From contig CM119371.1 in assembly GCA_051294905.1 (NCBI GenBank), forward strand, positions 39,930,001 through 39,994,000: a stretch of DNA of 64,000 nucleotides, given 5' to 3'. The notes under the pieces were generated by a model, which saw nothing but the letters and a program-made list of their open reading frames with translations, was not told the origin of the DNA and ran no database searches. The position numbers were made by a program, and so were the translations under genes. Positions 25,813-61,035 of the stretch are shown one piece after another (within the stretch, counting starts at the first letter, position 1; every line of letters begins with the position of its first letter). The DNA comes from Botryllus schlosseri. Taxonomy: Eukaryota.

Positions 25813-26082
25813 CTTTTATCAAAATACACCAACCAAAACTCTGTCAACAAAAGGAGTTCGTGTATCACCTAAAAATAGTACATTGAACGTTCTCTCATTC
25901 GAAATTTCATGCTGGTGACGTCATATTTTGTGATACGATTGTTGATATACAATGTTCTTTCCAATTCTCTACTAGTTGCTGACGATTACCCCTGACGAGT
26001 GTCAGCCGGAAATATTCGGGTTCATTTCAATATGAATATACTATTTAATTGTATATTGAAGTTCTGTACCTCCAAGAAGCTC
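25813..26082 (+). mobile_element. 5'-truncated single-orientation Penelope insertion
   Basis: Matches about 32556-32828; TSD TTTACACAA (25804-25812, 26083-26091). Confidence 0.88.
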
Positions 26083-31505: not shown

Positions 31506-31539
31506 ACCCGAATATTTTCGGCTGACACTCGTCAGGGGT
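31506..31539 (-). ncRNA. Minimal hammerhead ribozyme, opposite-arm copy
   Basis: Exact reverse complement of 32732-32765. Further copies at 544-577(-), 4137-4170(-), 4408-4441(+), 25988-26021(+, GAAA>GGAA), 54490-54523(-) and 54667-54700(+). Confidence 0.8.
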
Positions 31540-31640
31540 AATCGTCAGCAACTAGTAGAGAATTCGAAAGAACAGCGTATATCAACAATCGTAGCACAAA
31601 ATATGACGTCACCAGCACGAAATGTCGAATACGAGAGCGT

Positions 31641-32393
31641 TCAATGTACTATTTTTAGATGATACACGAACTCTTTTTGTTGACACAGCCTTGGCTGGTG
31701 TATTTTGATAAAAGTCGACTCCAAGGCGCACAAATGAAAGTGTGAGCGACCCTTTCCGAGTATGCGAAATCTGTCGTCTCGATAATTTTTCGCACAGGCG
31801 GGATTATCCAACAAGTGTTTGCCAATTGCAGAATTTATGGCCTTTGATTGGTCCGCATCAATCTTGAGCGGGTGAGTTAAGGGTGAGCTTTTCATCGAGC
31901 GTGTTCTAATGAATCTAGGGACATGCTGATTTATGCGTTCCTGCAAGCGCTTTGACGTTCTTCCCACGTAGCCACAATCACAGTGGCACTTAAATTCATA
32001 AACTACATTGCTTTGCTGAAGTGCGGGTAGCACGTCTTTACGTGTTGCGGGGAGCAGTTGCGTTGTCGTGAAAATCACGTTGGTCTTCACTGTGTCGTAA
32101 CACTTATTGACCGCTGAAATCAATTGCTTTTCAAAGCGGGTGGAAATAGGCCCTATCCAAGGTAGATGGATGTAAACATCTTTGGTTGTTCGTTCGGTAG
32201 GCTCTGTTGACTTTTCTGCATTGAAATGTGTTACTTTCCTCTCTATGCCACGGTTGATGACATGTTCAGGGTAACCGTTATCAAGTAAGATTTTCCGGAT
32301 ATTGTCAAGTTCTGAGTTCAGTTTATTACCCGAACATATCATCAACGCTCTATGCACGAGGGTGCCTATGAGGTTGATTTTTCTGCGGCTAGG
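31641..32393 (-). pseudogene. Penelope RT-thumb plus GIY-YIG endonuclease fragment (open frame, 5'-truncated)
   Basis: ORF 31641-32423; its first ~10 codons come from the inverted arm and are not part of the protein. Confidence 0.88.
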
Positions 32394-32731
32394 ACTCACC
32401 CGCTCAAGATTGATGCGGACCAATCAAAGGCCATAAATTCTGCAATTGGCAAACACTTGTTGGATAATCCCGCCTGTGCGAAAAATTATCGAGACGACAG
32501 ATTTCGCATACTCGGAAAGGGTCGCTCACACTTTCATTTGTGCGCCTTGGAGTCGACTTTTATCAAAATACACCAGCCAAGGCTGTGTCAACAAAAAGAG
32601 TTCGTGTATCATCTAAAAATAGTACATTGAACGCTCTCGTATTCGACATTTCGTGCTGGTGACGTCATATTTTGTGCTACGATTGTTGATATACGCTGTT
32701 CTTTCGAATTCTCTACTAGTTGCTGACGATT

Positions 32732-32765
32732 ACCCCTGACGAGTGTCAGCCGAAAATATTCGGGT
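32732..32765 (+). ncRNA. Minimal type-I hammerhead ribozyme in the Penelope 3' repeat
   Basis: accc-CTGACGA-g(tgtcagc)c-GAAA-atat-TC-gggt: intact core, helix I accc/gggt, vestigial helix II, palindromic AATATT in place of helix III. Confidence 0.8.
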
Positions 32766-35700
32766 TCATTTTAATATGAATATGCTATTCAATTGTATAT
32801 TGAAGTTCTGTACCTCAAAGAAGCTGTTCAAATATCATAGAAGGAAATTATCTCAATAAATATCTGTGAATAAGTGATATTCCCAGGATTCTTCGGCGAA
32901 TTTTCTTTTTTTATGTTATGCTCCAGCATGATGCCCTCGACCACGATTGTCAATGTTTCTGAAATAACAATTTACAGCAGAAATTCAATCATATACACTC
33001 ACTAGCACTCCATTTACTTTATTTTTATTGTAACACTGGTTCAATGTCTATATGAAAGCCAGCAGCAGGACAAGAGTTTTTTATGTAAGCCTATAGATCA
33101 TGGGTGGTTGTTTGAATGTTACAAAACTCTGAATTTGTTGGGAAAAGTGAGGTTGAAATAATAATTACCTACCGTGACACGGCATCATCGTGATGTATGG
33201 CTTGATCTCGTTGCAATCTTGCACGTGCAGCAGCAAGGGGAGGGGGTTCTGGCCACACCTCGTGGTCAACTGGTCAATGATATGATTGAGTGACAGATGT
33301 GCCTCCAGAAGTCGTTCTTCACTATTGTACAGCATCCTTTGCGGTAGAGAAAGTGTGATGGCAAAGTGCTCCTACTCCGACTACAGCAGCTTATTGAAAA
33401 ACACTGTACATAGGTGAGCACAGCAGCCTTCCTTATATTGGACTGCAAAAGGGTCTTTCCGGACTTGCTTTTCTTCTCCTCTTCGCATCTGTTTTCATTG
33501 AAGTGCGGGGCAGCTAGCCGTCCTCGTCCTTACCGAGGTGGCGTGTCCATGGAATCAATTAATGAGATGGGAACAGAACTGCTTGCCTTGAACGTGGGCT
33601 TCTGTACTTCCTCTACACAAGTCATCGCAAATTATAAGAACCTAAAGTACCATAAAATGAAGATTGAATAGTCCAGTCGGGCATGACGAATCAAAACAAC
33701 GCAGCATCAGGTAATTTAGGCGAAGACAACAACCAACGATTGACTTAGACATCCCATTCAGTGTTCCATGTATCGGCAAAATCCTCATGGTAGTACGTCA
33801 TCGACACGGTTGCTGATTTTACAGCCGTTTCCCAGAGGTCGGCAGTTTGCACTGCGATATCTCAGAAAATACGTAATTTTAGAAGTTAGGATGTATACTA
33901 TTGGAATCAGCATAAAAAACTCTACAAAATGAGCCAAAGTTGTTTTGGTCGATATAGTTGACCTTTAAGTAGGGCCTTATGAGAATATGATAAGGTAAAC
34001 ATCAACTTCTGACTGCATTCCACTTAATACAAAAATTTCGATCTGCCGTTTTACTATAGTGACGGAAAATAAACGGCTCGGTTATGATTTTTATCAGCAG
34101 CCTGGTTTTTAATGCTTCGATGTAGAAATTGTCATGTTTAATTTGACGGGTACAAAATTTCGAATCGTTGTCCATTGTCTACGTAGCGCAACCACATCGC
34201 GGATCGAATTTCAAACCTTTGGGATATGTATTTCTATTGATGAGGTCACGGCATGCGCCCATAATTTTACGATCATATTCGACAGGCTGATATTAACCAG
34301 CGCGTTGTCGGCATTAAAACCCCAGGTGCGTAGCCCTAGCCAGGTAGTTTCTCATTTATAACTACAAATCCCGTCCTTTTGAAATGTCAATTCACGAAAT
34401 CGTATTATCGATGCTGCGTACTGCAAATTAGCGAGAATCATTTATATGCGAAATTGGTCATCGGTATCTCATGTGCACTATCCGCGGCGGTTTGATTTAG
34501 CGCGTCCGCATGTAGGCTTGCTACCGTCCGCAGATACACTTTCGCCAAACAGTAACAATCCCTGAGTGCAATATTGTTTGTGTTTATGTATCTTTTTCAT
34601 TAAAACCTATGCCCACGTCGGGACAAATTGTGCTCGTTGCCTATGCCTAATCTGGGTATCTAGGTATGACTATAGCACATCATGTAATTGTAATTATCGC
34701 AGGTTAGCGGCATGTCTGCAATTTTGTTATCAGCGCATCTTCTCGGCCGATTGAACATTCCAATGAAATTATTTACTACTATGTATTTCGCACAGCGTAC
34801 TGAGGCTGATTTCAGCAAACTAACGATGTTTATTAGACGAACGAATTCGACCGCATCGTTAGAAACGTAGATTCGAATTACTATCGCGATTTGACGATCA
34901 AATATACGTTCACCTTTTACAAATTAAGGGGCATTATTTGCATTGATGAGGGCTGCAAGCTGCGTTTGAAGTATTTTGTGAACCATTTTTGTGACAAATA
35001 TTCTCGGAGCGCAAAGTCGAACAGTGTTTAATTGTGTGTGCCTGCTAGTTATTCCAGTACCCATAATATTGATCCAATTATGCTTTGGGAACGTAAATCG
35101 GGAAATGCAGCAACGTAGTCAAAATCAATGTTTTAAATAGCAACCTATTTTCGCGATGCGAGCTACTCAATAGTAAGTAAAAACCCTTTGTGATGGCGGT
35201 AAGGGATAAGTACTGATTGGCCGCGCTCGTTTGTAATCATAATTCTTGTCTGTTTTTCGTGCTCTAGAATTGTCGCGCCGTGTTACTGCTCAGTCCAGCG
35301 ACGAATGCCGAGCGCGCGGCAATCAATGACATAATTTTGCAGTCGCAATAATTTCGCAATGGTCGAGGCCCGCGTAACACTGATAATACGACTTGTTGAA
35401 TTGCAACTGAATATTAGGGTCAGAATGGTCATTTCCAAAGGACGGGGTTTTGCATTTCCAAAGGGGTGTCGACACCTGGTTACGCGCCTGTCGCCACCCC
35501 ATGCAAAAATAAAAGTCGGCGCCTATGGGACCCCGTACGCTAGATCTTTTACATCGGACAACGATATCAACTTCATTGGTTGGTTGAATAAGCATCATTC
35601 GCTGACTACGTGTAGTGTATTTCGTTCTTGATGCTGTGTGATTACGGGTCAAGCTTACAGCTGAGTGACACTAAATATTCACAAACGGAGAGCTGGATAT

Positions 35701-37255
35701 TTCAAGCAAACTTTTGTAACCAAGAAAGTAAAATTATTAAGATTGTCAAGGTGCATGCTTGTGCACTGTTGATTTTCCTGCTGCCAGCGCGATGTATAGA
35801 CTGACCCGCAGTTGAAATGCAATAAATTGTGACCAAGGATGTCATAATGACGTGAAAATTGTAATATATCAAAAAGGTTCACAGTGCACAACCGGGGCCT
35901 ATCAAGGTTCGTTTGTGAACGTGAACCTCTAAATTTTAGAGGTTCACATATAGAACGCGAACGCGAACACGAACCTCACAAATCATAAACTGGAATTCTT
36001 TTTTGCGTTCCGCGCCACTTTCTTCCAGCTAGAATTTATTGTCTCTCTGTTCTTTCGTCTGACGTCACGTTAACGTTCATGATCCCCACAAAACTGTAGT
36101 ATAGGCCTAATATACGAATCCGACATAGTGACTTTATGGTTAGGGTTCTGGTAAAAATCCTTTCGCCTCTGCTTAAATTCTCTTCTAATCGAAGCAATAA
36201 ATAAAATCATGATTTTACTAATTATAAAACAATAAAAGAACATGGGATGAATGAGGACCATATCAATTAATATAATGGAACATATCGAATAAACTCAATA
36301 ATTCGCAGTTCGGAGACACCATCCCATAGTTCAAATAGTTCAATCTCACTGGCAGAAATGGGTCGCCAGAATCGCCATTAACCTGTTTCCAGATATGTTG
36401 AGTAGGGCAGGTGCGGGGTTACAGGTCAGAAGGTTCTCAGTCACAAGTCAGTCTCACTTTCACAGTTTTTAATCGAGTCAGGTCGAGTCATTTTCAAATC
36501 ACCACCGAGTGAAGTCCTAGTCGGAGTTGGATGTAGGACAGGCATTATATTTTTGTGGTTGCAAAAAGTGTACATTTTCTAATTTTTCTAGGTCAATGAT
36601 ACAGTTGTTATTTCAATAATGTGTGATACTCGAATATTCGACTAGACGCCAAATGCGCGATCCAGAATCGAATCCCTCAGGTAATCAATTTCGATCAGTG
36701 CAAATGTTGAGTCAAGTCTGAATTATCCATAACACTAGCCTATGTAGCATTAGTATCATTGATGATATCTGGAGTGATTTCTGGGTGCGAAAAACTATGT
36801 CCGGTTTATGTACAATGCACATGATTAATAAATAATAAGCCATATTCATACAACTCCCCAGAAAATGAAACAGCCGCAAAAATATATAAAGTCAGCGCGG
36901 AGGAATTAAATCGAATATCAAGGGTGAATACCTGATATAAATCGACCTGAATTAAATCTGCCTTATAAATTCAATATCGGAGTGAACGGGGCAATATTGA
37001 ATAATTACCAAATACATAACATTTCTTTTAGTGCAACACGCTGTAGATTTTTCCATGGTAATGTGAGTAGGCCTACATTGCAGATTTATTGATATCACGA
37101 TGACATTTTTTAAATCGGAAGAAATCCCGAAAACTTGAACAAAAATGACATTACGGATGGTCCCCACACATTTCCAGATGGTGACCCCTCAATTTCTGCA
37201 CGCAAGTGGATAAAAATGCACATTAACAAACTAAATTAAACATAATATATCTGAC

Positions 37256-38650
37256 CTTTGTAAAGATCGTTTTGTGATTTGGAGAAGACGACGCCTGCCA
37301 CGAATCGTCGCACAACGGACCATCGTTCTTCATGGAGATGTTCTTCATCGAAGCGAGAGAACTCGTTGAGATTCATTTCTGCTATGAAAATCGCTGCCAG
37401 ATATTCTTGAAGGCTTTGATGACAGAAAAACAATGTGAAATTTCCTTCCATCAAATGTCGGCTTAGTAAGTTGTTCCCCGGGACTTTAGTCATCAAATCT
37501 TGGACTTCATCTGCCGAAATTCCAAATTCCTTCAAGTCCGCCTCTTTAAACACGACCCGTCCTTCTCTCATGCCTCGAAATGCCAATGACTTCAGTTTGT
37601 TGACGATCGATAAGATTTGTTCCCGATTTCGAATGTTTTCGACGCTTTGTAGGGATGATATGATCCTGGTGTATAATTCTGTCACCGTTGTTGGAGGAGG
37701 TTTATCTGGATCCCTGCCCATCACAACTGCCGTTAGAACCAGAAAAACGGGCACAGAGATTAAATTGAGCAATCTTGGTGACATAGTCTCAATTTTCTGC
37801 CAGAGCTCCTCACCATTCTCTTTGAGTAAAAATGCAAATAGCCTATGCGCGTCATCATACGTAAGGCCATTCAGCGTGATGATGGTTTCCGGTCGCGCCA
37901 TCGCCGGTAACTCTGAAACCTTGAACTCGCGCGAAGCTATGTAGACATTTACGCGACGTAGGATATTCCGGGATAAAATGTTGTACATGATTGTCCCGCA
38001 GCTTGCTTTTTCGTGCTTTTTCATTTTGCGTGGAGTTTTCTCAAAATCCCACCTTGCTTGATCAAGTCCGTCGAATATTAGGAGTGCATCGGATTGATGT
38101 TTATCCAGCCATTTAAATGCATGATCCTCTTCAAATTCATTTTCGAAGAGCCCTCCAAATAAAAATTTAGATGGTTTAATATCGCCCTTCACTTCGACGT
38201 CCTTCAACTCAATATAATGGACCATTGTTTTACCGTTAGAGTACAGATCTTCAACATGCTCAATGTTGGTGGATGCGCCAAGAGCTCGTCGAGCTATTCT
38301 GCGTGTAAGCGTGGATTTTCCCGATCCAGCAGATGCCACAATAGCGGTTATACCAACAATTCCTGATAAGCCTGATTTTTTCTTTTGCCACATGGATGCC
38401 ACTACGTCCACGATCCCGATATCTTTCGCTCTAAGTGTGTCCTTACGCAGAAATCCAACTTCCTGTGTCAGCTGATTATGGCCATAGCGACCTTTGTAAT
38501 AATCATCAACGTCAACTTGACGCATCTGCGGGTAAACTTGAAAGTCAGGTTGCTGAAGCTTTTCATGTCGGAAGTCATCAAGGATATCAATGGCCGTAAC
38601 ATTTATGGTATTTTCGTTGCAAATTTGTAACAACTTTTCGTTACTGATAT
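37256..38650 (-). CDS. NLR-type receptor, NACHT-domain exon (1395 nt, phase 1-1)
   Basis: 465-codon open frame with Walker A (ASAGSGKST), Walker B (LLIFDGLDQ), sensor-1-like IASR, VPVFL and winged-helix FFCHQSLQEYLAA motifs. Acceptor ttttatttccag before 38650, donor gtcaga after 37256. Confidence 0.93.
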
Positions 38651-38804
38651 CTGGAAATAAAATATGGAAATTATAGGTATGAAAGATAAAGAAAACTTGA
38701 AATCTTCATATAGATACAGTTTGTCGAGCTATCGTTCTCACACGGAAATTTGACTGCAGATGAACGCAAGTAGTAGTATAGATCGCTCGCGATTCGCCAT
38801 TGTG

Positions 38805-39092
38805 GCTTATGGGTGCGGTCGCATGCGGCTGGGAAACTCGTGGTGGCATGCGGCTCTTATTTCTTATGGGTGCGGTCGCATGCGGCTATTGCGTCTTATG
38901 GGTGCGGTGGCAAGCGGCTCTTATTTCTTATGGCGGGGGTCGCAAGCGGCTGGGAAATCCGGGGTGGCATGCGGTTCTTTTGTCTTATGGCGGTGGTGGC
39001 ATGCGGCTCTTTTGTCTTATGGCGGGGGCGGCATGCGGCTCTTTTGTCTTATGGCGGTGGTGGCAAGCGGCTATTGCGTCTTATGGGTGCGG
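38805..39092 (+). repeat. GC-rich subterminal minisatellite of the Polinton-like TIR (mirror copy about 50376-50631, 32 bp shorter)
   Basis: Recurrent cttatggcggtggtggcatgcggct-type units of about 32 bp; boundaries approximate. Confidence 0.8.
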
Positions 39093-42000
39093 CCGTGAAT
39101 CGCCCTTTCGGGTATAGTCAACTCTTGCGCTGTGTTGAAGAAGTATCAGGAATAGTAAATAGTCACGTGATTGATTCTTAGTTAATGTGTATATTACAAA
39201 TTATTAAATATGACCGATTCGAGTTAATCCCAGCGTTTACGGTAAGTACGACAATGATATAACGTTATTCTTATGGCGGTGGTGGCATGCGGCTATTGTA
39301 TCGTGTTCTAACTCAAGTCTTTTCGCGCTGTGCCTATTGATTCCTACGTAACCTGAATAGCACGCCGACTTTCAGATCGGGTTATTCGCACCTTGTATAC
39401 CGCTGTTTCGCACCTACAGAATAGTCTGCTGTTCACAGTCGTGACTTCACCGCGATAGCGCGATTTTCGAATCAGTCGCATGGTAATGTTTTGCTATTTA
39501 GTTTACCACAGAGCGGTGTAGACGACGATTCGAATACCAACAATAACCGCGTTCACATACTAACACTCCAAAAAGGTGTGAAATATTTCCTACGACCACT
39601 CACAAGATAGCACATCAGAATAGTCATCTCTCGTGGTTTGATGTTACAAAGATAGGAATCACGCACAAGTAATATTTTGGTAATAAGTTTGTCACATAAC
39701 CGGCGTAGACGCTGATACCAACAATAGCCGCGTTCACAAACTAACACTTCAAAAAGGTGTGAATTAGGTTGCAAACCCCGCGATCGCTGACAAGATATTG
39801 TCTCGGACATAACCATCTTTCGCGACTTGCTGTTACATACATCCCAATCACTCACAAGATACTATTTTGGTACTTAGTTTGTCACAGAACCGGATTTCAC
39901 TGGTAAAATTTAATAAGTAACGAATAACAGAGCCGGCGTAGACGGTGATTCGAATACCGACAAATTTTCACTTATTTCTGCCCCAACCTCTGTGAAGTTG
40001 ACGCTTATTCAAAAAAGGTGTGAAATAATTGTAAAATCCTACGTCGGTGACGCGATAATGCATGAGACATAGCGATCTAGTTATAGTACGGTGTCGGAAT
40101 CCAATCGCGAGATGTTCTATAGGTAAATTGAGATAATCCGAAACGAAATATTTTGACTTTGGCGTAGTGTGAATTGAAATAGGATTGACAAACATGACTA
40201 TCAACTTTCCCACAGTCCCATATTGATATTATACGCACATTGATTTGAAACAAGTAATGGAACATTGCAACTCTATTCGCGATCCGACTTTTCGTTTGTC
40301 AAAGCGACATTTTAACATCTTACCATACTCAAAAGAATTATTTACAACATTAACAAGTGTTCAAAATCCAGTTTTCACTTACTTGATTATATCACTGCAA
40401 CTCACAAATTTGAATTAATTCATCCTGGATGTATTCGTATGATCGGTCTTTTTTATTCAATTGTAAAGGTCGTTACTATTCTGAAGACAAAGTAAGCTAT
40501 TTACTAATCGACACATGAATGACTTGACATAAACATATTATATTTTGAGTATACGAGATTTGAATGTCTGAACAATAACTGATAAATAATTTATCACAAT
40601 AAAATACGTATATTACAGCGTAAAAGATGTTTGAATGTCAGCAACTCTGTACGGTCATAGTCACTACCACTAATTTACCCGACCAACTCGTCATGATCAT
40701 TCCTGAAATCAACACAAATATGACCACTGACTTGAGTTAACCACAAAACAGCATCAAGTTTTAAATCCACTCGTAGCTTACGGATTATTTGAATGCTGGT
40801 TATGTTTTGTTGTAATTGAGCTAACGAAATAGTATTACGTCTCGACATCTTACCATCTTACCATATTCAAAGAATCAACCACGAAAACATTGTCAAGTAA
40901 ATCCGTTAACCGACCAACTCAAACAGTATCAATACGAAAAACAACCAAACATACACGAATCCATACAATCACTAAAACCTAAAATCCATAACAAACCCGG
41001 TTGTATTCATATCCCAACGCATCTTTTTTATTCACTTGAATATTAAATTATTTGCGTTAATTAGATCTGCATTGTGGTAAATGTTATGACTGCAACAAAC
41101 TTTTCAGAAACATTGTTATTAACATATTGATTTGTAAAACTATGCGTGTCTGAAATGTTTTTGATTTGAAAGATATTCCGTGTTTGTACAAATCACTTTA
41201 CGTATTACGGATATCAGAAAATATTTTTACAAATGTAGTTGTTTCCAGTAACCAACACTAAAGATGGCACAACAATTTCGTTATCCAAACATTGAACACC
41301 CGATGCAAAATGCTTTATTGGTCAAATTCGTGACGGCTAATTGAAACGACTACGTATAGAGTCAGTATATTACAATTTCATGTCGTTACTATTGAATCCA
41401 GCAATTGATACAATTTGTTGTCGGAGTTGTGACAGCGCATTGAAACATACACAACTTACAGAGTGTGAAAATATCACTTTGGGTATCGAGTACCGTTTGA
41501 AGCGTGCGATCAATACATAATTCCGTTCGCACTCTCTAAGACGTTGTGAAGTCTACAGATTTACACTTCAAGACTTTGATCAACACATATGCAATTTGGA
41601 ATATCTTTACTGGATGCATCCTATTCGACTAGACTTGAGTAATACACAAAACTCATAGCATTAACAAAATCGCAATAGGCGCTACACTGAAATCTACGAA
41701 ATGTTTTTCTATTGTTGTTAGTGATCATAAATTATCATTTGAATAAGTAATTGTAATCATAAAACCAAACTTGCGAAAGTCATTACCATAACAAAAGAAT
41801 ATTGTAGGTTGCTTGCTAAATGTATGCCGGAAATATTTGTAGAACGCTCACGACCAAAGAAATTGGAAATTTTCCCATTGTCATTCGTCAAAGTAAATGT
41901 CGTCACAATAATCAGTCACTAAAATACCTTACTTGTATGTGATTGAATCGCCGACAATTAACTCGGTAAATCAAACCCCTGAGAAATTTCACTCAGTCAT

Positions 42001-43789
42001 TGGATAGGAAACAGCGGCACTTAATCGGTGTGAGTCGTTTTTTCTAAATACTAATCATATCTGTCCACCCAAGAACAATTTTCACTCACTTGGGTAACGA
42101 AACCAGTGTCCAATATCAATACAAGATATTTTCGTCACACAAAAATAATCAACTTTACTCGATATTCCCGTACTACGAAACTGTACAATGGTTTCATATT
42201 TTTTGTGTGACATGGAATTAATACCGATCGAAGTAACCGTATTGGAAATAACTTTTAAACAAACACACTCTACGTGGTTAACATTCTCGTCGATTCTATT
42301 GTGATTAATGTATACTTCATGTGATCTGGATTCATTTCGATATGGCTAAACATTCAACCTCGACGGATACGAATTGTCACACACTCAAGTAATATCATAC
42401 CAAATAGTTATTTACAAGACACAGAAAATTTGTTTGGGTCGTTTCGATTTTATTACTGGAGATACTCATCACTTCGCTTAATACAATCTAGATTTAAACT
42501 CCATCGAACCTTTGGTGTCTATCGTTTGCTGGATACGAATTATGTTAGTCTAAGAGTACACAATTTTCACTATCTTGGGTTATGAACTCAGTGTGTTAGC
42601 GATCATTCAATATTTTGTAGTATCAACTAGCTACCTCGTAGGATACGAATGATCATCCTCACAACTCTTACAAAAGTACGAAGGATATTTACATCACACA
42701 AAGTAATCGACTTTACTCGATATCCTCACACTACGAAACTGAATGATTGGTTTGACTCTACAAACTGTTCTGATGTCACAAGAACTTTTTCATACGAATG
42801 GTTACGTATCTAAATATTCAAATAATCCAACACACGACTATAGTACTTACAGAAATATCATAGTTCTTGTAACAAAGTTGTATAAGTATAATGTTTATCG
42901 TAAGTCCTACATAGCCATGATATCCGTCCGAGTTTGACTTTTAGAAAACATTATACCGACTTCGCGACATCTTTCAAAATTAAAACCATGGTGACTGCTT
43001 CAGAGACCTACCAATGATATTGTAGTAATACAGTTACTTCCACAAAAGAGTATGTATTCGACTTACTTACCACAAATCTAACGCACAAAACAATTTACTT
43101 TACTAGCGAGAAGCGCCGAGCCTCACATCCAAACAACTAGAAAGTTGAACTATATTAAAAAACGTCGCTAACCTTTGTGCACCAGCTGTAAATCACACAA
43201 GCAACATGTTTCAAGATTCTGGTTATTGAAAAACGTTAAAGTGTTTCTCCTGCACCAAGTCGTTATGTTGACGAAAGCGTATATTGTAATACCATGATCG
43301 ATTTTCATTCGTTGGTCACAAACTGTCACTACTCTAAATAATTATTTTTCACTCAAACACAAAAGCATACTTGTCACCAATCGTTTTCATCAAGCACGAG
43401 TTCAAGAAGCTTACTTACTACGACATGAATTGTTATTTTTATGTTGTGTAAATAGGTAATAATTTATTTTAGTAACACTACATCAACATCATCGAGTTGT
43501 GCGAATAGATTTACATGTGGTTTTAATCGAAGTACACAGCACGAACTAACTGTAGACTCCTCTCTGTTGTACAGCTACTCGGTAATCGAAATGCATTAAC
43601 ATGTAAACAACGATCTTGTTTCGTCACACCAAAAATATGTTCACTGTCGCGATACTCCGCACAAGACGTGCATAGCCTTTTCACACTCGTAATAGTACAC
43701 CAACGTCAAGCGATAACGTTTAACAAGACCAACGACACTGAAGCCAAGCCGTTTACCTATGTAAAATTACCACTTTCACTTGCCAGTCC

Positions 43790-44240
43790 ATCGTTTACCT
43801 GACTAAACATATTATTTTTCTTTGGAGATCTGACGTTTACCCAGAGTAAGAAACCATTTTCACTTGTAAATATTTTTTTCCTCGGCTAACAAACCTTTTT
43901 TTCACTTGGAAATATATTTTTTCTCTGGTTAACAAACCTTTTTTCACTTGGAAATATATTTTTTCTCTGGTTAGCAAACCTTTTTCCCTGAGCAACACGC
44001 CATTTTGACTTGGTGGTCGTCGTTTACCCGAGTAAAAATATCATTTTCTTTTGGAGATCCGGCGTTTACCCAGTGTAACAATACATTTTCACTTGGAAAA
44101 ACACTTTTGCCTAGAGTAACTAATCATTTCTCCTGGGTAACAAACCCTTTTCGTCTGGAAAACTATCATTTGCCTGAGTACCAATACAGTTTTCACTTGG
44201 AAATCTATCTTTCACCTGGGTAACAATACCATTTTCGTTT
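43790..44240 (+). repeat. Degenerate ~40-bp tandem repeat inside the left arm (mirror about 46685-47135)
   Basis: Repeated ttttcacttggaaa...gtaacaaacc motifs; boundaries approximate. Confidence 0.7.
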
Positions 44241-45811
44241 TGAAAACTGACAACCACACCGGTCAATTTGATATTTTTGTATATTGTTACAACGGACAGT
44301 GACAAAAATACACCAACAACGACTCCGATACATTTGTGTAATCGCATATTCACTTGTTCTGGTGCATCCCGTCAAAACCCTCAGTTACCCACATGTAATG
44401 CGCTATACATCGATGTGAATGTTTTGGAAAATTGGACAATAGGCTTCGATAGTTCTGTGATGTCCGGATTCGTGCTTTGGATTTTCCAGAGTCAAAATGT
44501 CTGAATAAAACACCTCCTTGACGATGGTTGGTATGTGGATAACGGTGTTCGGAAAACGGTTGGATTTATGTCACCCATCGCGATAACAACTCCAGGTCGA
44601 ATTTTCCTCCCGCATGTTTACTATATTGTGTCTTTATTGGTCAATGTATGTCTCGACATTCAGTTTGAAATCGGAAACCCTGATAAAGTATGTAACCGGA
44701 TCCGGATATCAACTGTGAATCGATAAACCAATGGACAATATTCAAAGTAAACATGTTACACCCTGTGTTTCCACGAAAAAATACCATCCAGACATACGTC
44801 GCGCTTGTTTTCCCACACCAGTATACGCGCAAATGGAGGTGTGTGACATTGCATGCAATGTGTTGGTATACAAACATCGATCCACAGACATTATCATAGC
44901 CGGTGGTTTTGATGTAGATCGAATGTCACCCGATAACAATACCAATAAGCCACATTGCAATGACTCTGAGTCAATCTGAAGCATGACATACAGACACACA
45001 AACATGGAACCGTAACATGGGTATTCACACGACGGTGAAAGTGAACTGTACAACATATATCAATATTGTGATCACAGTCGAATATGCGAACCATGCACAA
45101 TCATATACCTTAGTTTTTGTTGGATATGTACGAAACCGATAAATCGATACATTTCTTTTCCTTCGATGTCAATAATACAACCGTCATTCTAATGTATCGC
45201 TCGAATGTAATGTTCGTCGGGTGTAAATGCCATGTCAAATAACACCAAAGTGTGCCTTCTGTGTTTTATTATTTCCACTGACGCTTCTTGCCTGTGTCGT
45301 AACACTATGGTGCTGGGACTTGAAAAACGGCAGATTGTGAAACAGATTGACATGACCAACTGAATCGACGTCAATAGCCTTGTGACGATGGCGTTTCAAA
45401 ATGATACCGATCTCTTGTGGCGATGACCGTTTCGAAATGTCGCCGGACGAACTGGACCCTTATGATGATGTGTTTTATGATTGCGTGTGAAATCACGAGG
45501 TAGTGTTCTATTGTGGTGTACGATTGCAGATTCCACAGAAACACACCTTATTGGATCACAGTATCAGTCCGAGATTTTCAGAATCACTGTTCACGATATT
45601 TATCTGGAGTCGTTATGTGGGAGTAGCGACATCCCGTGATTTAGTGAAAGACTGATCGCAATCATTTCGAGCACCGTACTTCGATAGTTCGCATTGGTCA
45701 AACTTCGGTGTCGACAACACGCTGGATATTGACCGATCTGGGTGGTCTGTCTGGAGATAGGGTCATGACTATCTTGTAATGTTACAACGCGATAAAACCA
45801 TCGAATAAATC

Positions 45812-45969
45812 AGTGAACGGTGTCGAAATATCGATGTAATAGCGCGGACTCAGAGTCATTGCATAGTGAACGGTGTCGAAATATCGATGTAATAGCGCGG
45901 ACTCAGAGTCATTGCATAGTGAACGGTGTCGAAATATCGATGTAATAGCGCGGACTCAGAGTCATTGCA
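45812..45969 (+). repeat. Three tandem copies of a 53-bp unit straddling the spacer/right-arm junction
   Basis: agtgaacggtgtcgaaatatcgatgtaatagcgcggactcagagtcattgca(t) starts at 45812, 45865 and 45918. Confidence 0.92.
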
Positions 45970-48900
45970 ATGTGGCTTATTGGTATTGTTATCGGGTGAC
46001 ATTCGATCTACATCAAAACCACCGGCTATGATAATGTCTGTGGATCGATGTTTGTATACCAACACATTGCATGCAATGTCACACACCTCCATTTGCGCGT
46101 ATACTGGTGTGGGAAAACAAGCGCGACGTATGTCTGGATGGTATTTTTTCGTGGAAACACAGGGTGTAACATGTTTACTTTGAATATTGTCCATTGGTTT
46201 ATCGATTCACAGTTGATATCCGGATCCGGTTACATACTTTATCAGGGTTTCCGATTTCAAACTGAATGTCGAGACATACATTGACCAATAAAGACACAAT
46301 ATAGTAAACATGCGGGAGGAAAATTCGACCTGGAGTTGTTATCGCGATGGGTGACATAAATCCAACCGTTTTCCGAACACCGTTATCCACATACCAACCA
46401 TCGTCAAGGAGGTGTTTTATTCAGACATTTTGACTCTGGAAAATCCAAAGCACGAATCCGGACATCACAGAACTATCGAAGCCTATTGTCCAATTTTCCA
46501 AAACATTCACATCGATGTATAGCGCATTACATGTGGGTAACTGAGGGTTTTGACGGGATGCACCAGAACAAGTGAATATGCGATTACACAAATGTATCGG
46601 AGTCGTTGTTGGTGTATTTTTGTCACTGTCCGTTGTAACAATATACAAAAATATCAAATTGACCGGTGTGGTTGTCAGTTTTCAAAACGAAAATGGTATT
46701 GTTACCCAGGTGAAAGATAGATTTCCAAGTGAAAACTGTATTGGTACTCAGGCAAATGATAGTTTTCCAGACGAAAAGGGTTTGTTACCCAGGAGAAATG
46801 ATTAGTTACTCTAGGCAAAAGTGTTTTTCCAAGTGAAAATGTATTGTTACACTGGGTAAACGCCGGATCTCCAAAAGAAAATGATATTTTTACTCGGGTA
46901 AACGACGACCACCAAGTCAAAATGGCGTGTTGCTCAGGGAAAAAGGTTTGCTAACCAGAGAAAAAATATATTTCCAAGTGAAAAAAGGTTTGTTAACCAG
47001 AGAAAAAATATATTTCCAAGTGAAAAAAAGGTTTGTTAGCCGAGGAAAAAAATATTTACAAGTGAAAATGGTTTCTTACTCTGGGTAAACGTCAGATCTC
47101 CAAAGAAAAATAATATGTTTAGTCAGGTAAACGATGGACTGGCAAGTGAAAGTGGTAATTTTACATAGGTAAACGGCTTGGCTTCAGTGTCGTTGGTCTT
47201 GTTAAACGTTATCGCTTGACGTTGGTGTACTATTACGAGTGTGAAAAGGCTATGCACGTCTTGTGCGGAGTATCGCGACAGTGAACATATTTTTGGTGTG
47301 ACGAAACAAGATCGTTGTTTACATGTTAATGCATTTCGATTACCGAGTAGCTGTACAACAGAGAGGAGTCTACAGTTAGTTCGTGCTGTGTACTTCGATT
47401 AAAACCACATGTAAATCTATTCGCACAACTCGATGATGTTGATGTAGTGTTACTAAAATAAATTATTACCTATTTACACAACATAAAAATAACAATTCAT
47501 GTCGTAGTAAGTAAGCTTCTTGAACTCGTGCTTGATGAAAACGATTGGTGACAAGTATGCTTTTGTGTTTGAGTGAAAAATAATTATTTAGAGTAGTGAC
47601 AGTTTGTGACCAACGAATGAAAATCGATCATGGTATTACAATATACGCTTTCGTCAACATAACGACTTGGTGCAGGAGAAACACTTTAACGTTTTTCAAT
47701 AACCAGAATCTTGAAACATGTTGCTTGTGTGATTTACAGCTGGTGCACAAAGGTTAGCGACGTTTTTTAATATAGTTCAACTTTCTAGTTGTTTGGATGT
47801 GAGGCTCGGCGCTTCTCGCTAGTAAAGTAAATTGTTTTGTGCGTTAGATTTGTGGTAAGTAAGTCGAATACATACTCTTTTGTGGAAGTAACTGTATTAC
47901 TACAATATCATTGGTAGGTCTCTGAAGCAGTCACCATGGTTTTAATTTTGAAAGATGTCGCGAAGTCGGTATAATGTTTTCTAAAAGTCAAACTCGGACG
48001 GATATCATGGCTATGTAGGACTTACGATAAACATTATACTTATACAACTTTGTTACAAGAACTATGATATTTCTGTAAGTACTATAGTCGTGTGTTGGAT
48101 TATTTGAATATTTAGATACGTAACCATTCGTATGAAAAAGTTCTTGTGACATCAGAACAGTTTGTAGAGTCAAACCAATCATTCAGTTTCGTAGTGTGAG
48201 GATATCGAGTAAAGTCGATTACTTTGTGTGATGTAAATATCCTTCGTACTTTTGTAAGAGTTGTGAGGATGATCATTCGTATCCTACGAGGTAGCTAGTT
48301 GATACTACAAAATATTGAATGATCGCTAACACACTGAGTTCATAACCCAAGATAGTGAAAATTGTGTACTCTTAGACTAACATAATTCGTATCCAGCAAA
48401 CGATAGACACCAAAGGTTCGATGGAGTTTAAATCTAGATTGTATTAAGCGAAGTGATGAGTATCTCCAGTAATAAAATCGAAACGACCCAAACAAATTTT
48501 CTGTGTCTTGTAAATAACTATTTGGTATGATATTACTTGAGTGTGTGACAATTCGTATCCGTCGAGGTTGAATGTTTAGCCATATCGAAATGAATCCAGA
48601 TCACATGAAGTATACATTAATCACAATAGAATCGACGAGAATGTTAACCACGTAGAGTGTGTTTGTTTAAAAGTTATTTCCAATACGGTTACTTCGATCG
48701 GTATTAATTCCATGTCACACAAAAAATATGAAACCATTGTACAGTTTCGTAGTACGGGAATATCGAGTAAAGTTGATTATTTTTGTGTGACGAAAATATC
48801 TTGTATTGATATTGGACACTGGTTTCGTTACCCAAGTGAGTGAAAATTGTTCTTGGGTGGACAGATATGATTAGTATTTAGAAAAAACGACTCACACCGA

Positions 48901-49146
48901 TTAAGTGCCGCTGTTTCCTATCCAATGACTGAGTGAAATTTCTCAGGGGTTTGATTTACCGAGTTAATTGTCGGCGATTCAATCACATACAAGTAAGGTA
49001 TTTTAGTGACTGATTATTGTGACGACATTTACTTTGACGAATGACAATGGGAAAATTTCCAATTTCTTTGGTCGTGAGCGTTCTACAAATATTTCCGGCA
49101 TACATTTAGCAAGCAACCTACAATATTCTTTTGTTATGGTAATGAC

Positions 49147-49246
49147 NNNNNNNNNNNNNNNNNNNNNNNNNNNNNNNNNNNNNNNNNNNNNNNNNNNNNN
49201 NNNNNNNNNNNNNNNNNNNNNNNNNNNNNNNNNNNNNNNNNNNNNN
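49147..49246. other. Assembly gap (100 N) in the right arm
   Basis: Run of N. The flanks mirror left-arm positions 41779 and 40221, so about 1.56 kb is missing if the arms are symmetric. Confidence 0.97.
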
Positions 49247-51244
49247 ATGGGACTGTGGGAAAGTTGATAGTCATGTTTGTCAATCCTATTTCAATTCACA
49301 CTACGCCAAAGTCAAAATATTTCGTTTCGGATTATCTCAATTTACCTATAGAACATCTCGCGATTGGATTCCGACACCGTACTATAACTAGATCGCTATG
49401 TCTCATGCATTATCGCGTCACCGACGTAGGATTTTACAATTATTTCACACCTTTTTTGAATAAGCGTCAACTTCACAGAGGTTGGGGCAGAAATAAGTGA
49501 AAATTTGTCGGTATTCGAATCACCGTCTACGCCGGCTCTGTTATTCGTTACTTATTAAATTTTACCAGTGAAATCCGGTTCTGTGACAAACTAAGTACCA
49601 AAATAGTATCTTGTGAGTGATTGGGATGTATGTAACAGCAAGTCGCGAAAGATGGTTATGTCCGAGACAATATCTTGTCAGCGATCGCGGGGTTTGCAAC
49701 CTAATTCACACCTTTTTGAAGTGTTAGTTTGTGAACGCGGCTATTGTTGGTATCAGCGTCTACGCCGGTTATGTGACAAACTTATTACCAAAATATTACT
49801 TGTGCGTGATTCCTATCTTTGTAACATCAAACCACGAGAGATGACTATTCTGATGTGCTATCTTGTGAGTGGTCGTAGGAAATATTTCACACCTTTTTGG
49901 AGTGTTAGTATGTGAACGCGGTTATTGTTGGTATTCGAATCGTCGTCTACACCGCTCTGTGGTAAACTAAATAGCAAAACATTACCATGCGACTGATTCG
50001 AAAATCGCGCTATCGCGGTGAAGTCACGACTGTGAACAGCAGACTATTCTGTAGGTGCGAAACAGCGGTATACAAGGTGCGAATAACCCGATCTGAAAGT
50101 CGGCGTGCTATTCAGGTTACGTAGGAATCAATAGGCACAGCGCGAAAAGACTTGAGTTAGAACACGATACAATAGCCGCATGCCACCACCGCCATAAGAA
50201 TAACGTTATATCATTGTCGTACTTACCGTAAACGCTGGGATTAACTCGAATCGGTCATATTTAATAATTTGTAATATACACATTAACTAAGAATCAATCA
50301 CGTGACTATTTACTATTCCTGATACTTCTTCAACACAGCGCAAGAGTTGACTATACCCGAAAGGGCGATTCACGGCCGCACCCATAAGACGCAATAGCCG
50401 CTTGCCACCACCGCCATAAGACAAAAGAGCCGCATGCCACCACCGCCATAAGACAAAAGAACCGCATGCCACCCCGGATTTCCCAGCCGCTTGCGACCCC
50501 CGCCATAAGAAATAAGAGCCGCTTGCCACCGCACCCATAAGACGCAATAGCCGCATGCGACCGCACCCATAAGAAATAAGAGCCGCATGCCACCACGAGT
50601 TTCCCAGCCGCATGCGACCGCACCCATAAGCCACAATGGCGAATCGCGAGCGATCTATACTACTACTAACGCATGCGATAAGACTTTGTTTGGTGAGGAT
50701 TGCCTATAATTGAAAGCTAATATTCCCAGAAATGATGGTGAATTGTCGCGCAAGGAAACCAATTATTGTGGCAATCACCCATATTTTTCTCTGCAAACGA
50801 GAATACAAGGTTGGGCTAATTATTGTCGTATTCAGATAAGTAGTAGTCGTGATAAGTATTGTTAATCGATTTCGAAGATTACAGCATTTGAAAGTAATGG
50901 TAATCGCAATCGATTTTATTCAATAAATCATAATCGTGCTGATAGTAACCGATTATTTCACATATCTAATCGATTTCTTTGCGAGATAGCGTTCACTTTT
51001 ATTTGTAGAAGGACTATGACAGAACCTGAACATTCGTGAACAAGGAACAGTGCGGTATTATACCTCGTTGCTGATTGCAGAACCGTCGTATTTCCAGACG
51101 CCACTGGTCAGTCACGAGTATTACCTTTGCTTAAAACCGCGTAGCGAATCATCCACACAGTAAATATATATTCGATGTACTTTGTACTTGTACATTTGGG
51201 CTCTTCAAAAAATCACTTGTTCTCAAATCGTACTGGCTACTTGA

Positions 51245-51666: not shown

Positions 51667-53252
51667 CTACTTGATAAATTTGACAAAGGTAAAATTATTC
51701 TCGTATATTATTATGCTACGGTTTTAGGGTATTCAGGTGTCGCTAAACCGAGAAATGGCATAAATTTTTTTCCGAATAGACTTTATTTTTTGAAATATTC
51801 CGTATTTTTGTTTCTAATAGTGCTAATTATACGCAAATTCCCTTTATGTACTACAACTTCGATGAGTCTACATCTGACTTTTCAAGTCTGTACATCAAGA
51901 AGTATGCTGATGCGATATCTATAAAGACGCAATTGTTAACACAGATAGCCTTCTATAGCGAATCCTCTTTCATGTGAGAATCAAGCAAAAGTTTTAAAAA
52001 TAAGGTGATATTAGCATGACAACAGATTTTTGCAATGTAAAACAGGTGACGTCAAGGAATAGATATTAATTTTAGTAAGGCTCAACGCTCACTTTCACAA
52101 ATTATTTAATGAAACCAAGTTTTATGTGCAGCGGTGGAATGATGACCCCGGCAACAAAAGTTCCAATCATGATGTTAGCTTCACCTACTGCCATGGAATC
52201 TCTAGTTGGCCACTCTTTCTTTACCCAGTGATCAGTGCACGCTCAGCTATCCCACAAGCAGATAAAACATAGCTATTTTGATAGGTGTCCAATTGGGAGA
52301 GATGTATATTTCAGTTCAAACTGTTTTTCAAACTGTCCATGAATAAGCGCCACTCTTGAGGTCTAAATTGTGGCACTCCCATTTTCAGCAGAAGCCCTTC
52401 GAGGCCGGGGCAGTCAGTGTTCATTTTGTTAGCTAAAATTAGAAAGTAATTATTTTTCTCTTGTAAGGCAGAATGTTATTCAAGCTCCGGTTCCAAGGCA
52501 GTTTTTGTCTTTGAGTCGAGTAAACTTCTTCAAAGTGAGGCGCAGATCACCGAGCAGGTTAAAAATCTGCATAATTCCAAGTATTATGCTTACGACGAGT
52601 AAATTAAAAAAAATTAAATAGGAGTATCGAAATCTTGAGCCAATTCAAAGAAACGGATGTCGTTTTCGGACTCAGCAGACCAAACATACCCAGAAACCAA
52701 TAAAATATTTCTCGCACTGATAAAGATTATTTGTAGTTGTCCAGTGTTATCGTTAACATAACACAAAAATCATCTGGGTTAACGATTCCATTCCGATTCC
52801 ACACCGAAACCATCAGGGTTATGTCATTGAAAGCCGTCGGAATGGAATTAGGGTTACGGTAAGGATTTGGGTTAATGGTTACATTAAGGGTTAGTTTGGG
52901 GTTATATGAAGTCCCATGCCGCAACTCCCCGTGCTAAGGTTTCTATTACTAAACATCTCGTTTTGTTTTTACGGCATGCATAAGTATCGGGCAACCGGTA
53001 CTTCAATGAATAGCATGTACATTATTCTAATTTCATCCAGCCTACGTATGGGTTTTCCCTGCGCATAATTATTGTATCAACAATAACATGCTATCGTGCT
53101 AATACCCAAAACAGTGATTAAATTATCATGAATAGCAGATCTTAAAATATTTTGAAACATATATTGCTCGTCATTGATAAAGTAGCCTACTTTGAAGGTC
53201 ACCATGCTCGTGAGTTGGGACATCGTATTAAAAGAAAAAACATTACACTCAC

Positions 53253-53387
53253 TCTGACTCGACGGACTTGTTTCTCTTTCAGCACTAGTGGTGTTGTGGA
53301 CATTGTTCAGATCCCCGGCCACGATGTTAATAGAGCAATTTTCGAACTTTTGATTGACATTTTCACCTTCAGCCAAAGCTGCAGATC
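53253..53387 (-). CDS. Probable N-terminal NLR exon with RHIM-like motif (135 nt, phase 1-1)
   Basis: Acceptor gtgtgtctcag and donor gtgagt. Encodes SAALAEGENVNQKFENCSINIVAGDLNNVHNTTSAERETSPSSQ. Phase 1 matches the NACHT exon acceptor; the linkage is inferred. Confidence 0.6.
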
Positions 53388-54168
53388 CTGAGACACACGT
53401 TATTAAAATAATTTTATTGGTAATTGCCACTATTTAATATGGGTAATATTATCCGAGTTAACTGCGCTCCAATACATCAGGCATCAATTGCCGCTTGTTC
53501 CCCGTGGTAATAATGTAGACATAACATCAGCGACACCAGAATTGTGATCTCGGACCTCTTCTGCCATGCTATTGATCACGTGGTACTAATTAGATAGGGT
53601 ATACCAAAATACTGAAAATACTTAAAATTTCATTCAACGGTGCATCTTTTCTGAGCAACAGGGCGAGACTATCAGTCCTCAGCACATAGCTATGGTAGAT
53701 CTGATAGATATGTTCGAGCAATATGACCTGGCAACAGTCACATGTCCACAAATAAGTAATACCCTATATCAGTGCTTTTCAACCTGTGTAACGGTTCGCA
53801 CTGGTGCGAATGAAAAAAATTTCAGTGCGAATGACGAAGGTGGTGCGAATAGTGCGAATGAAAATCCGGATCAAGTGCGAATGAAAATCGTGAATAATTG
53901 TTAATTTTTCCTGACATAGAATAATTCAAATAAACCTAAATGGTAAATTAAGGTCAGTGTAACTTTTGTAGTGGCGACGCAATTGTGAAAACTCGTTCTA
54001 CTGATGACGCACCACTTATCGTAGTTCTCAGAAGCCGTAGTGAATTAATATATTCGCACATTGACTATTACGTAACCAAAAGCCTGGTTTGTCAACTGGT
54101 GTTTGTTAGTTTGTTTTGGGGTATTCATGGTGTTTTTCGACTACTAAGGTCATTTACACCAGGCCGAT

Positions 54169-54364: not shown

Positions 54365-54477
54365 TTGGAAGCTGGTGTAGTTCAGACATACAGTATATCA
54401 GCCCGTCAGAGCCTACGACAAATTGACTTTCTGCTTTTATTCGCTAAACAATAATCATATTTTCGTAATAACTGTTC

Positions 54478-54764
54478 ATATTGAAATGAACCCGAATATT
54501 TTCGTCTGACACTCGTCAGGGGTAATCGTCAGCAACTAGTAGAGAATTGGAAAGAACATTGTATATCAACAATCGTATCACAAAAATATGACGTCACCAG
54601 CATGAAATGTGATACGATTGTTGATATACAATGTTCTTTCCAATTCTCTACTAGTTGCTGACGATTACCCCTGACGAGTGTCAGCCGAAAATATTCGGGT
54701 TCATTTCAATATGACTATACTATTTAATTGTATATTGAAGTTCTGTACCTCCAAGAAGCTCTTC
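54478..54764. mobile_element. Short inverted Penelope insertion nested in a hAT element
   Basis: Two opposed 3' tails; TSD TAATAACTGTTC (54466-54477, 54765-54776). Confidence 0.88.
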
Positions 54765-56428
54765 TAATAACTGTTCGATTAGCGCGAGACGCGAGGATAG
54801 TTGTAAATACAATTATTACAGACTAACATTTGCAAGTTACTGTAACGCAAATGTTTACCCCTTCAAGGGTTGTTAAAGTATGGATAGCAAAGGGCATAAC
54901 TTTTGGTCGTCGTGATGTAAGAGATATCTGTTAATATGTATGTAATATTTGTTCAATTTATTGCAAAAAATCCTGCTATAATTTTTACATATCTTAGGTC
55001 ACTGTGTTGGGTACTGTAGCCAGTAACCGAGACACGCAGAAAATATAGCTTTATCATGAGAATTTATGATAAGATTTGTACGACTGGTTTCTGGGAAACT
55101 TGGTCGAAGACCGTTGGGACGAACTAGTGTAGGCCTGTAGGGGTGTGCAACGAGTGAGTTCAGGCCTATGAGACTCATTCATTTCGGGGTCAACCCCTTC
55201 TGCGTCGGGGCACATGAAGACGTAAAGTTTTGGCCAACAAGCCGCTGACAAAATACGGTGCCAAAAATATAAGCGGCGACAAAACCTTGTCTAAAAAATG
55301 ATCGATGCTGTATGACAGAACCTTTCTATATGGATATGCTCCCTTGTCGGCACGGAATAGTCCCGTGTCTGCAATCTGATTAGACACGCAGTGGAATTTA
55401 ATTTGCCGTAATTTGAAATCGCGTGCGTCAGGCCTGTTTTGTAGAGCTGTGTTGGATAGAATTGTGGTCTGCGCGTTCCGTATGTCATACCTGTCCGTAA
55501 AATCGTATCATTCAACTGTAATACTAAAATGAATTCATTTTCAAGAGTGAGGCTCCGGTCGCGGGATGCCACAAAAACTCAGATATTAGGGGTGGTCAAG
55601 AATCTGCTATTAAACTGCTATGAATTACATTTGTTACATTTGGCTAAAGAGCTGAGCACACATAGTATCGTGAGTTTCTTTGCTCTTCTCATATAGCCTA
55701 GTCGCGAGACAGAAGTTGGAGCAACGTATCACATAATAGCGAGCTCTAATGTGCCTATACTCTGCTTGATCGTTTTGTAACATATATTCCAAGAGATAAG
55801 GCGAAAGCCTCAACTCAAACATGTGGGTTTTCACCCTTCCGACAAATTTTTGCCTCCGGGACCTTTGTGTCAGCTCTCAAAAACGATTTCTGCCAACAAG
55901 CATTTCTCACTCGCGAAAAATACGCTGTATTTTGGATTGGAGTGCAGAACAGATTTTAAGACCTGGCCATCGAAGCACTAGAAGACGTTGTTGTACAAAA
56001 CCCAACAACTTGTTTGGCTGAGAAGGGTTTTGGTGAAATAGTTGAAATCAAAAAGAGCGAAAAAAGTTGCCTCTCTAATGAGACACTTGACAGCTTAGGC
56101 TCTAGAGAATAGCCAATTTGTTGCACATCTGAACAAAATGTTGTTAAGTGTCGTCATCTCCTTTTTGTATAACAATTTTCGGTTAGGTTGTGCGAATGAA
56201 ATTTATTTTACAAAAAAAGTGCGAATGGAGCTCGAAAAGGTTGAAAAGCACTGCCCTATATTATCAGGAAGCGATGTGTTGAATAATAAATGGTATGAAT
56301 TATACCTTGCGATCAGTTTGTAATTATACGTATCTTCAATTATTTTAAATTAGCTTCTAATTCAGCTGCCCACAAATCAAAACCTTATTAAATACTAGTA
56401 CTACAATTAATGGACCAATCCTATAAAG

Positions 56429-60046: not shown

Positions 60047-60419
60047 ACATTTTAGGACGCCGTACTGCGACTGTTGGCGGTGCGGCAGCCTCTTGGTTTT
60101 CAGAAATGAAGAAACATTCATTAATAAAATCGGACCAACAACCACATTGGTAATGAGTTTCTATAGAATGACATCGGATGTTTCGCAGTATTTGAAATGC
60201 TCAGTTTATTTGCGCACATTTCTAATCCCCTAGCCTAGAATGTATTACGCGTTTCAGATAACAAACACTCACGCAATATCAACAGAAGTTGCATTTGTCA
60301 AGTAACACGTCTGATGTTTGACATTCGGGATTTGTATGCAGTGTAAGTAGTATAGTACCAGGATAATGACGTAATTCCGACTTGAGCTGATTGCTACTAA
60401 GTAGACCTAGCTGTGGGAC

Positions 60420-61035
60420 CATAGTGTCCTATATGGTGTCGACACAAGCAAATCTCACGGCTCAGTGAAATTGATTCACGTCACAATTTCCATTTGACTA
60501 CAGGCAATTTGACGATCATTTTTGACCGGCTTGCTGAGCATTAAATTTGGTGAAACGGGTATCAGTCGAAAGCTGACTCTGCACTGATTACGAAAACATA
60601 AATTTTATTCTGTCGCGGCCCTGGAACCCCCACAATCAGCCTCTAAATTTTCATTGTTATGGAGATTGGCATTGTGACGCAACAATGCTGTCTGACGAAA
60701 CGAGAGACACTACAATGCTGTCTGGCTCCCTTTTTCTTGAGCTACTATCTCGTTTCACCTGACAGCATTGTTGCGTCACACTGCCAATCTCCTCAACAAT
60801 GAATAATTTGGGGTTTGATTGTGGGGGTTCCAGGGCCATGAGCGGAATAAATTTTATATTTTCGCAAGCAGTACAGCGTCAGCTTTCGATTGATACCCGG
60901 TTCATCAAATTTAATGCTCGGCAAGCCGGTCAAAAATGACCGTCAAATTGCCTGTAGCCAAATGGAAATTGTGACGTGAACCAATTTCACTGAGCCGTGA
61001 GATTTGGTTGTGTCGACACCATATAGGACACTATG
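60420..61035. mobile_element. Hairpin MITE with P-element-like termini
   Basis: CATAGTGTCC...GGACACTATG; arms of about 270 bp; 7-bp TSD GTGGGAC. A half copy lies at about 18580-18865. Confidence 0.78.

Follow-up and report, generated by a model that had tools for sequence, protein, structure and literature searches.

A gene-less palindromic element with Polinton/Maverick-type ends in the genome of Botryllus schlosseri

To our knowledge, the replication cycle of Polintons (stem-loop intermediate, protein priming, integration and packaging) has mostly been deduced, mainly from gene content. Vertebrate Mavericks, as described in the accessible text of Barreat and Katzourakis (2021, PMC8097293), have (AGT)2//(ACT)2 or (AG)3//(CT)3 ends, duplications of a 6-bp target site (TSDs), terminal inverted repeats (TIRs) of 46–1447 bp, eight core genes and a length of 12.7–24.6 kb. 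Butterfly polintons possess TIRs of ~2 kb that encode hexon and adenain, and their polB-less derivatives are mobile, according to the available text of Igolkina et al. (bioRxiv 10.1101/2025.02.07.637071). Here we describe a locus in a 64,000-nucleotide stretch of the Botryllus schlosseri genome (assembly GCA_051294905.1, contig CM119371.1, positions 39,930,001–39,994,000, forward strand; the whole stretch is referred to as the window). At 38769–50667 of the window, the assembly contains a gene-less palindromic element with Polinton ends. Its parts are as follows.

38763..38768, no strand: left copy of the TSD, AACGCA (flank comparison)
38769..38777, plus strand: left terminal motif (AGT)3 of Polinton/Maverick type (motif class from the accessible text of PMC8097293), likely the integrase and priming end
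38769..44972, plus strand: left arm, 6204 bp, no detectable gene (self-comparison; no Pfam or PHROG match with stops read as X)
38806..39092, plus strand: subterminal GC-rich 32-bp minisatellite of about 8 units (repeat analysis)
39483..39963, plus strand: two diverged direct repeats of ~190–220 bp, 74% alike, plus a partial third (self-comparison)
43770..44248, plus strand: diverged 42-bp tandem array near the inner arm end, with its mirror from 46677 in the right arm (repeat analysis)
44973..45952, no strand: unique spacer (loop), 980 bp, or 874 bp minus two extra tandem units (self-comparison)
45812..45969, plus strand: 53-bp unit in three copies, 100% match, across the junction of right arm and spacer (repeat analysis)
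45953..49146, minus strand: inner part of the right arm, exact reverse complement of 41779–44972 (self-comparison)
49147..49246, no strand: assembly gap of 100 N, 1557 bp if symmetric (sequence)
49247..50667, minus strand: outer part of the right arm, terminating in (ACT)3 (self-comparison)
50668..50673, no strand: right copy of the TSD, AACGCA (flank comparison)

The element begins with AGTAGTAGT and ends with ACTACTACT, and the two flanking copies of AACGCA match perfectly; the odds of a chance 6-bp match between the flanks are about 1 in 4096. In self-comparison, the inner arms (41779–44972 and 45953–49146) were identical in inverted orientation at 3194 of 3194 positions, and the outer arms (38769–40221 and 49247–50667) at 1421 of 1421 aligned bases. 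No substitution was therefore found over 4,615 mirrored bases, which cover that number of the about 6200 bases of an arm. The sole difference in the outer arms was an extra 32-bp minisatellite unit in the left arm (38998–39029); the mirror minisatellite at 50376–50630 has one unit fewer, and a stray unit lies at 39269–39298. The gap stands in place of the mirror of 40222–41778. Provided that it mirrors the left arm, the element measures 13,356 bp, of which the two arms of about 6.2 kb make up about 93%, and the insertion is likely ~13 kb in total. These results bear out the original prediction, made from the letters of the window and a list of its open reading frames (ORFs), in all of its structural claims: self-comparison and ORF lists confirmed the AG..CT-type ends, the TSD, the near-identical arms, the 980-bp spacer and the lack of a long ORF, and the length again comes to about 13.3 kb on condition that the gap is symmetric. 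The termini and TSD also match the published hallmarks in the accessible text of PMC8097293, as had been claimed.

No long ORF was present in the assembled bases of the element. Its longest stop-to-stop frames were 140 amino acids (aa), running through the N gap, and 134–138 aa in the terminal minisatellite, and the longest ATG-initiated ORF wholly inside the spacer was 54 aa. The six-frame search for Polinton proteins that had been recommended with the prediction was run here with stops read as X, and no Polinton gene (pPolB, integrase, ATPase, protease or capsid) was found in the six frames of the assembled bases. Pfam returned no family in any of the six X-read frames of 38769–45970 (left arm and spacer) and, among shorter frames, nothing below E 0.25 in the 15 from the element (17 scanned). 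With PHROGs, none of 12 frames had a family at E<0.04 (one match had E 0.043), and Rfam gave 0 matches for the element. Stop-free stretches of at least 60 aa were more numerous than expected (28 versus 16.5); a weak excess persisted under dinucleotide shuffles (fraction 0.02) and was gone under trinucleotide-preserving shuffles (fraction 0.36).

One minus-strand frame (42371–45970, 3.6 kb) was also compared with a library of 1.84 billion proteins. It had five matches, all unnamed singletons of 72–161 aa from ENA contigs of 621–5531 bp, and these are ORF calls on sibling copies of the element. Successive stretches of two siblings, P0011 and P0013, match different reading frames of the window, as expected for chance ORFs in non-coding DNA. 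Motifs pointed to two protein candidates, both of which were rejected: a decayed EEP nuclease close to the inner end of the arm and, in the 42-bp array, a membrane protein with repeats of 14 aa. The 15 element frames had no Pfam match below E 0.25, the siblings change frame, longer homologues were not found, which is weak evidence, the best NCBIfam match had only E 0.056, and P0011 had no usable Atlas match and a low recognition score. A weak bacterial match, L001 (19 residues, 47%), was rejected as chance. The sibling ORFs used as queries retrieved nothing from metagenome or viral contigs, and the terminal 23-mer of the element had 0 matches in either set. In one RNA run, 180 of 12.9 million reads fell on the element, on both strands, and 174 of these fitted only partly; these thin data, with no starts or joints listed, revealed no discrete transcript from the element.

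One of the five siblings, P0015, provides a view of the arm/spacer boundary from outside the present assembly. It is an ORF call from the 5531-bp contig of a separate ENA assembly, and its first 36 residues match the inner arm end (97%). It then runs IPISHIAMTLSPRYY..., the same reading that the window gives where the arm leads directly into the spacer's right end; the last ~16 residues of P0015 do not match the window. Because P0015 reads across the junction of right arm and spacer, this junction is a family trait and not a chimera of the present assembly. Each of the three 53-bp units at this junction terminates with the 17 innermost arm bases. P0015, the only sibling seen there, has a single unit, and the triplication is not in that copy.

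Contigs of three samples from three studies (X1, X4 and X5) covered all 30 bins of 38500–46050. Their summed depth, which is neither a copy number nor an allele frequency, was 51,000–534,000, 22,000–625,000 and 500–40,000 in the element versus 159, 692 and 2 in the flank bin of the three samples. With many divergent contigs over these bins and the five sibling ORF calls, the element is one copy of an abundant multi-copy family that is present in the three samples. One X1 contig matched 38669–38798 with zero differences at a depth of 14.7; it covers the first 30 bases of the element, one fewer than our rule for a bridging contig requires, and X1 may come from the assembly's own sample.

The window copy differed from the sample contigs at 290 (X1), 308 (X4) and 305 (X5) places. 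This corresponds to ~4% of places, versus no substitution between the arms. Among the 40 of 392 difference rows listed, the flank had 3, the spacer 7, the unmirrored arm 6 and the mirrored arm 24; at 16 of these last 24, at least 90% of the X1 depth had another letter. Both arms carried the window's letter at all 24, an agreement that is automatic given the identity of the arms and that rests on those 40 rows. The combination of ~300 differences from relatives with identical arms indicates that the arms share a recent common template. The 32-bp unit difference indicates in turn that neither outer arm is a simple copy of the other.

We consider it reasonably likely that the element belongs to a non-autonomous, gene-less palindromic family with Polinton/Maverick ends that a helper copies and inserts, and in which replication rebuilds one arm from the other. 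Because no genes of its own were found, integration must occur in trans, as the original prediction had proposed, and the element must use a helper's integrase, of which the 6-bp duplication is the mark. It probably also uses the helper's protein-primed polymerase. Plain strand displacement would keep differences between the arms, so something must equalise them. In the cycle that we propose, the polymerase would start at one end and copy an arm and the spacer; the new strand, once in the second arm, would anneal to the first arm that it already contains, which would then serve as the template for its completion. Alternatively, mismatches in the 6.2-kb stem might be repaired. By either route both arms would descend from one, and the helper integrase would then insert the duplex and generate the 6-bp duplication. 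The triplication of the 53-bp unit where stem meets loop is a single event that fits slippage at the switch point and could be its scar. The likely length of the element comes close to that of intact Mavericks, and this may, as a speculation, reflect selection for fit in the helper capsid. The prediction had also explained the palindrome as a copy-back derivative in which one end was duplicated by template switching. That shape is upheld, with one end inverted round a unique loop over the 4615 comparable bases. The fold-back as an event of this copy is not, as the P0015 junction points to an inherited family architecture; a copy-back origin is plausible for the ancestor of the family.

Several points, in addition to the limits on summed depth and on the 24 agreeing places given above, count against this reading. 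The gap holds only N in the assembly, no piece among the contigs listed spans the palindrome, and P0015 is one protein-level witness of the right junction only, the left junction (44972/44973) being without an outside witness. The ratio of arm to spacer depth was not a clean 2:1: in X1 and X4, inner arm bins mostly had 3–6 times the spacer depth and other arm bins were below the spacer. The identity of the arms could also arise by chromosomal conversion or polishing, and the 32-bp unit difference between them has not been homogenised. Finally, no stretch of the 6.2-kb arm is traceable to a Polinton gene.

The lack of a spanning piece among the contigs listed would suit an assembly artefact, as would the 100% identity that continues directly up to the 100 N. 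In that case 45953–49146 would have arisen as a chimera by fold-back or by polishing to match the left arm, and a normal Polinton body would be concealed in the gap. We nevertheless regard such an artefact as highly unlikely. The same right junction occurs in P0015, from another assembly, which weakens the misassembly objection that had been raised with the prediction. A simple snap-back read would not be expected to leave a spacer of 980 bp, and the right end past the gap mirrors 1421 bp and bears the matching TSD. Even an autonomous element at this site would still start with 7.2 kb of gene-less DNA.

Arm-to-arm gene conversion is known for Y-chromosome palindromes, and inverted arms that are long, identical and set apart by a short spacer lend themselves naturally to it. 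The same element could thus be copied faithfully in both arms during replication, with arm identity kept after insertion by conversion in the chromosome; neither the arm comparison nor the contig differences give a date for the homogenisation. This explanation is unlikely in our judgement, because the arms still differ by one 32-bp unit and the triplication is located at the stem/loop boundary. Protein-primed ends also provide a direct route to stem-loops, and racquet or panhandle intermediates are described for invertron plasmids in the accessible text of PMC1864894.

The lack of any Polinton gene trace over the arm could instead mean that no Polinton end was copied back, and that a foldback-type parasite captured only the short Polinton terminal signal while its arms came from unrelated non-coding DNA. 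Tandem and dispersed repeats form a patchwork along the arm, like the modular TIRs of foldback elements. However, old gene remnants could escape detection, since the large protein library was searched with one 3.6-kb frame, and the butterfly polintons, with gene-containing TIRs of ~2 kb and polB-less derivatives that are mobile, demonstrate that the TIRs of real polintons can extend inward (bioRxiv 10.1101/2025.02.07.637071, available text). We think such a capture quite unlikely; it would be compatible with the replication by a helper that we favour.

If the favoured reading is extended, elements of this kind might form a distinct class, endogenous satellites of Polinton viruses with capsid-sized, gene-free hairpin genomes and half-length information. 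Every round of replication would involve a fold-back where arm and spacer meet that rebuilds their second arm, and the helper would package and integrate them. We put this forward tentatively, as possible but doubtful. If it were true, Polinton replication would have left a genomic record in the copies and in the scars at their junctions, of which the 53-bp triplication would be an example. A gene-free multi-copy palindrome isolates the cis signals of Polintons, namely the short ends, the subterminal minisatellite and the repeat arrays. It also makes the replication model testable from genomes alone: comparing arm-versus-arm with copy-versus-copy divergence tells replicative fold-back apart from chromosomal conversion, and a length range shared with the helper would be a sign of packaging. 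Such palindromes break assemblies, as the gap here illustrates, and screens for Polintons that rely on genes will not pick them up. What the present copy newly contributes is the junction evidence and the triplication.

The core of the 42-bp array, TTTTCACT, occurs 10 times on one strand of the left half of the element and 0 times on the other, and its copies are candidate protein-binding sites. The innermost arm bases (44953–44972) form two back-to-back small palindromes, one a perfect 10-mer and the other a stem of 5 bp with a single base at its centre. The sole similarity of the element's left half to the rest of the window was between 43609–43704 and 24760–24876 (68%, E 4e-7). The CpG observed/expected ratio was 1.19–1.44 in the element (38769–45952) versus 1.08–1.09 in the flanks, and neither is CpG-depleted.

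The insertion adjoins a host coding exon outside the element.

37236..38705, minus strand: host NACHT/NLR-like coding exon (Pfam NACHT, E 4e-15)

This frame is intact, 489 aa from stop to stop, with NACHT and NOD2 winged-helix domains. It has nine unnamed homologues at 41–54% identity, and the one named match among 10 is from the tunicate Clavelina (29%). A splice-acceptor-like site lies at about 38651, 117 bp from the element, and homologue matches begin at 38345–38663, so the element is probably in an intron or upstream region of the NACHT gene. A 118-aa frame past the right flank (53077–53433, minus strand), which shares the strand of the exon and has only weak Pfam matches (E 0.03–0.08), could be an upstream exon of this gene.

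Other repeats were seen elsewhere in the window. At 31473–32798, a 405-bp inverted repeat (99.75%) surrounds a 260-aa frame whose match to GIY-YIG is weak (E 9e-4, below cut-off), and we take this to be a truncated Penelope-like retroelement end; related pieces lie at 4068–4468, 25810–26084 and 54475–54769. Identical 345-bp direct repeats ~1.5 kb apart (20797–21141 and 22284–22628), each with a 51-bp tandem unit, flank a 238-aa frame with no Pfam match, and this pair is possibly a small long-terminal-repeat-like element. Smaller self-palindromic elements lie at 60417–61037 (~620 bp), 54475–54714 (~240 bp) and 7356–7497 (~140 bp), and part of the ~620-bp palindrome recurs at 18578–18868.

We found no published account of gene-less whole-element Polinton palindromes in a search that had most subscription journals, the original Polinton papers and Repbase outside it. 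The accessible texts of PMC6431247, PMC12448946, PMC3185507 and PMC3597656 contain no description of such a form. In the Botryllus genome paper (PMC12448946, accessible text), palindromes are gene-containing chromosomal blocks, and Polintons are unmentioned in the main text.

The element is not an autonomous Polinton/Maverick, failing over its assembled bases in both gene content and TIR length. It is like autonomous elements in its (AGT)n//(ACT)n ends, terminal inverted repeats and perfect 6-bp TSD, and its 13.4 kb, if symmetric, lies within the Maverick range of 12.7–24.6 kb. Unlike them, it has arms of about 6.2 kb instead of TIRs of 46–1447 bp, and none of the eight core genes was found (PMC8097293, accessible text). 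Polinton ends and a TSD without core genes suggest that it works like a non-autonomous Polinton derivative. Non-autonomous Polintons were reportedly described by Kapitonov and Jurka in 2006 as internally deleted, helper-dependent elements with ordinary TIRs, not as whole-element palindromes; the present element resembles them in having the ends and TSD and lacking the genes.

Foldback transposons (Drosophila FB and Galileo, and also Tetris) have very long inverted arms, internal tandem repeats and little or no coding capacity. FB and Galileo are moved by cut-and-paste transposases and have other termini and 7–9-bp TSDs. The element is like them in its long modular inverted arms with internal repeats and unlike them in its AGT ends and 6-bp TSD. 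The butterfly polintons are the nearest printed intermediates: they too have enlarged TIRs, and their derivatives stay mobile after loss of the polymerase, but their TIRs are a third as long as the arms here and gene-bearing, and the derivatives retain other genes. The string 'palindrom' is absent from the text of that preprint (bioRxiv 10.1101/2025.02.07.637071) as accessible to us.

The element shares the copy-back shape, an inverted duplicated end round a unique loop. Gene-free adenovirus genomes formed through inverted repeats are said to have been obtained by Steinwaerder and colleagues in 1999. Copy-back and snap-back defective viral genomes likewise carry one end twice round a unique loop and depend on a helper (PMC13506859, accessible text). 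Those genomes are transient, belong mostly to RNA viruses or engineered vectors and are traceable to their helper, whereas the Botryllus element is integrated, heritable and multi-copy.

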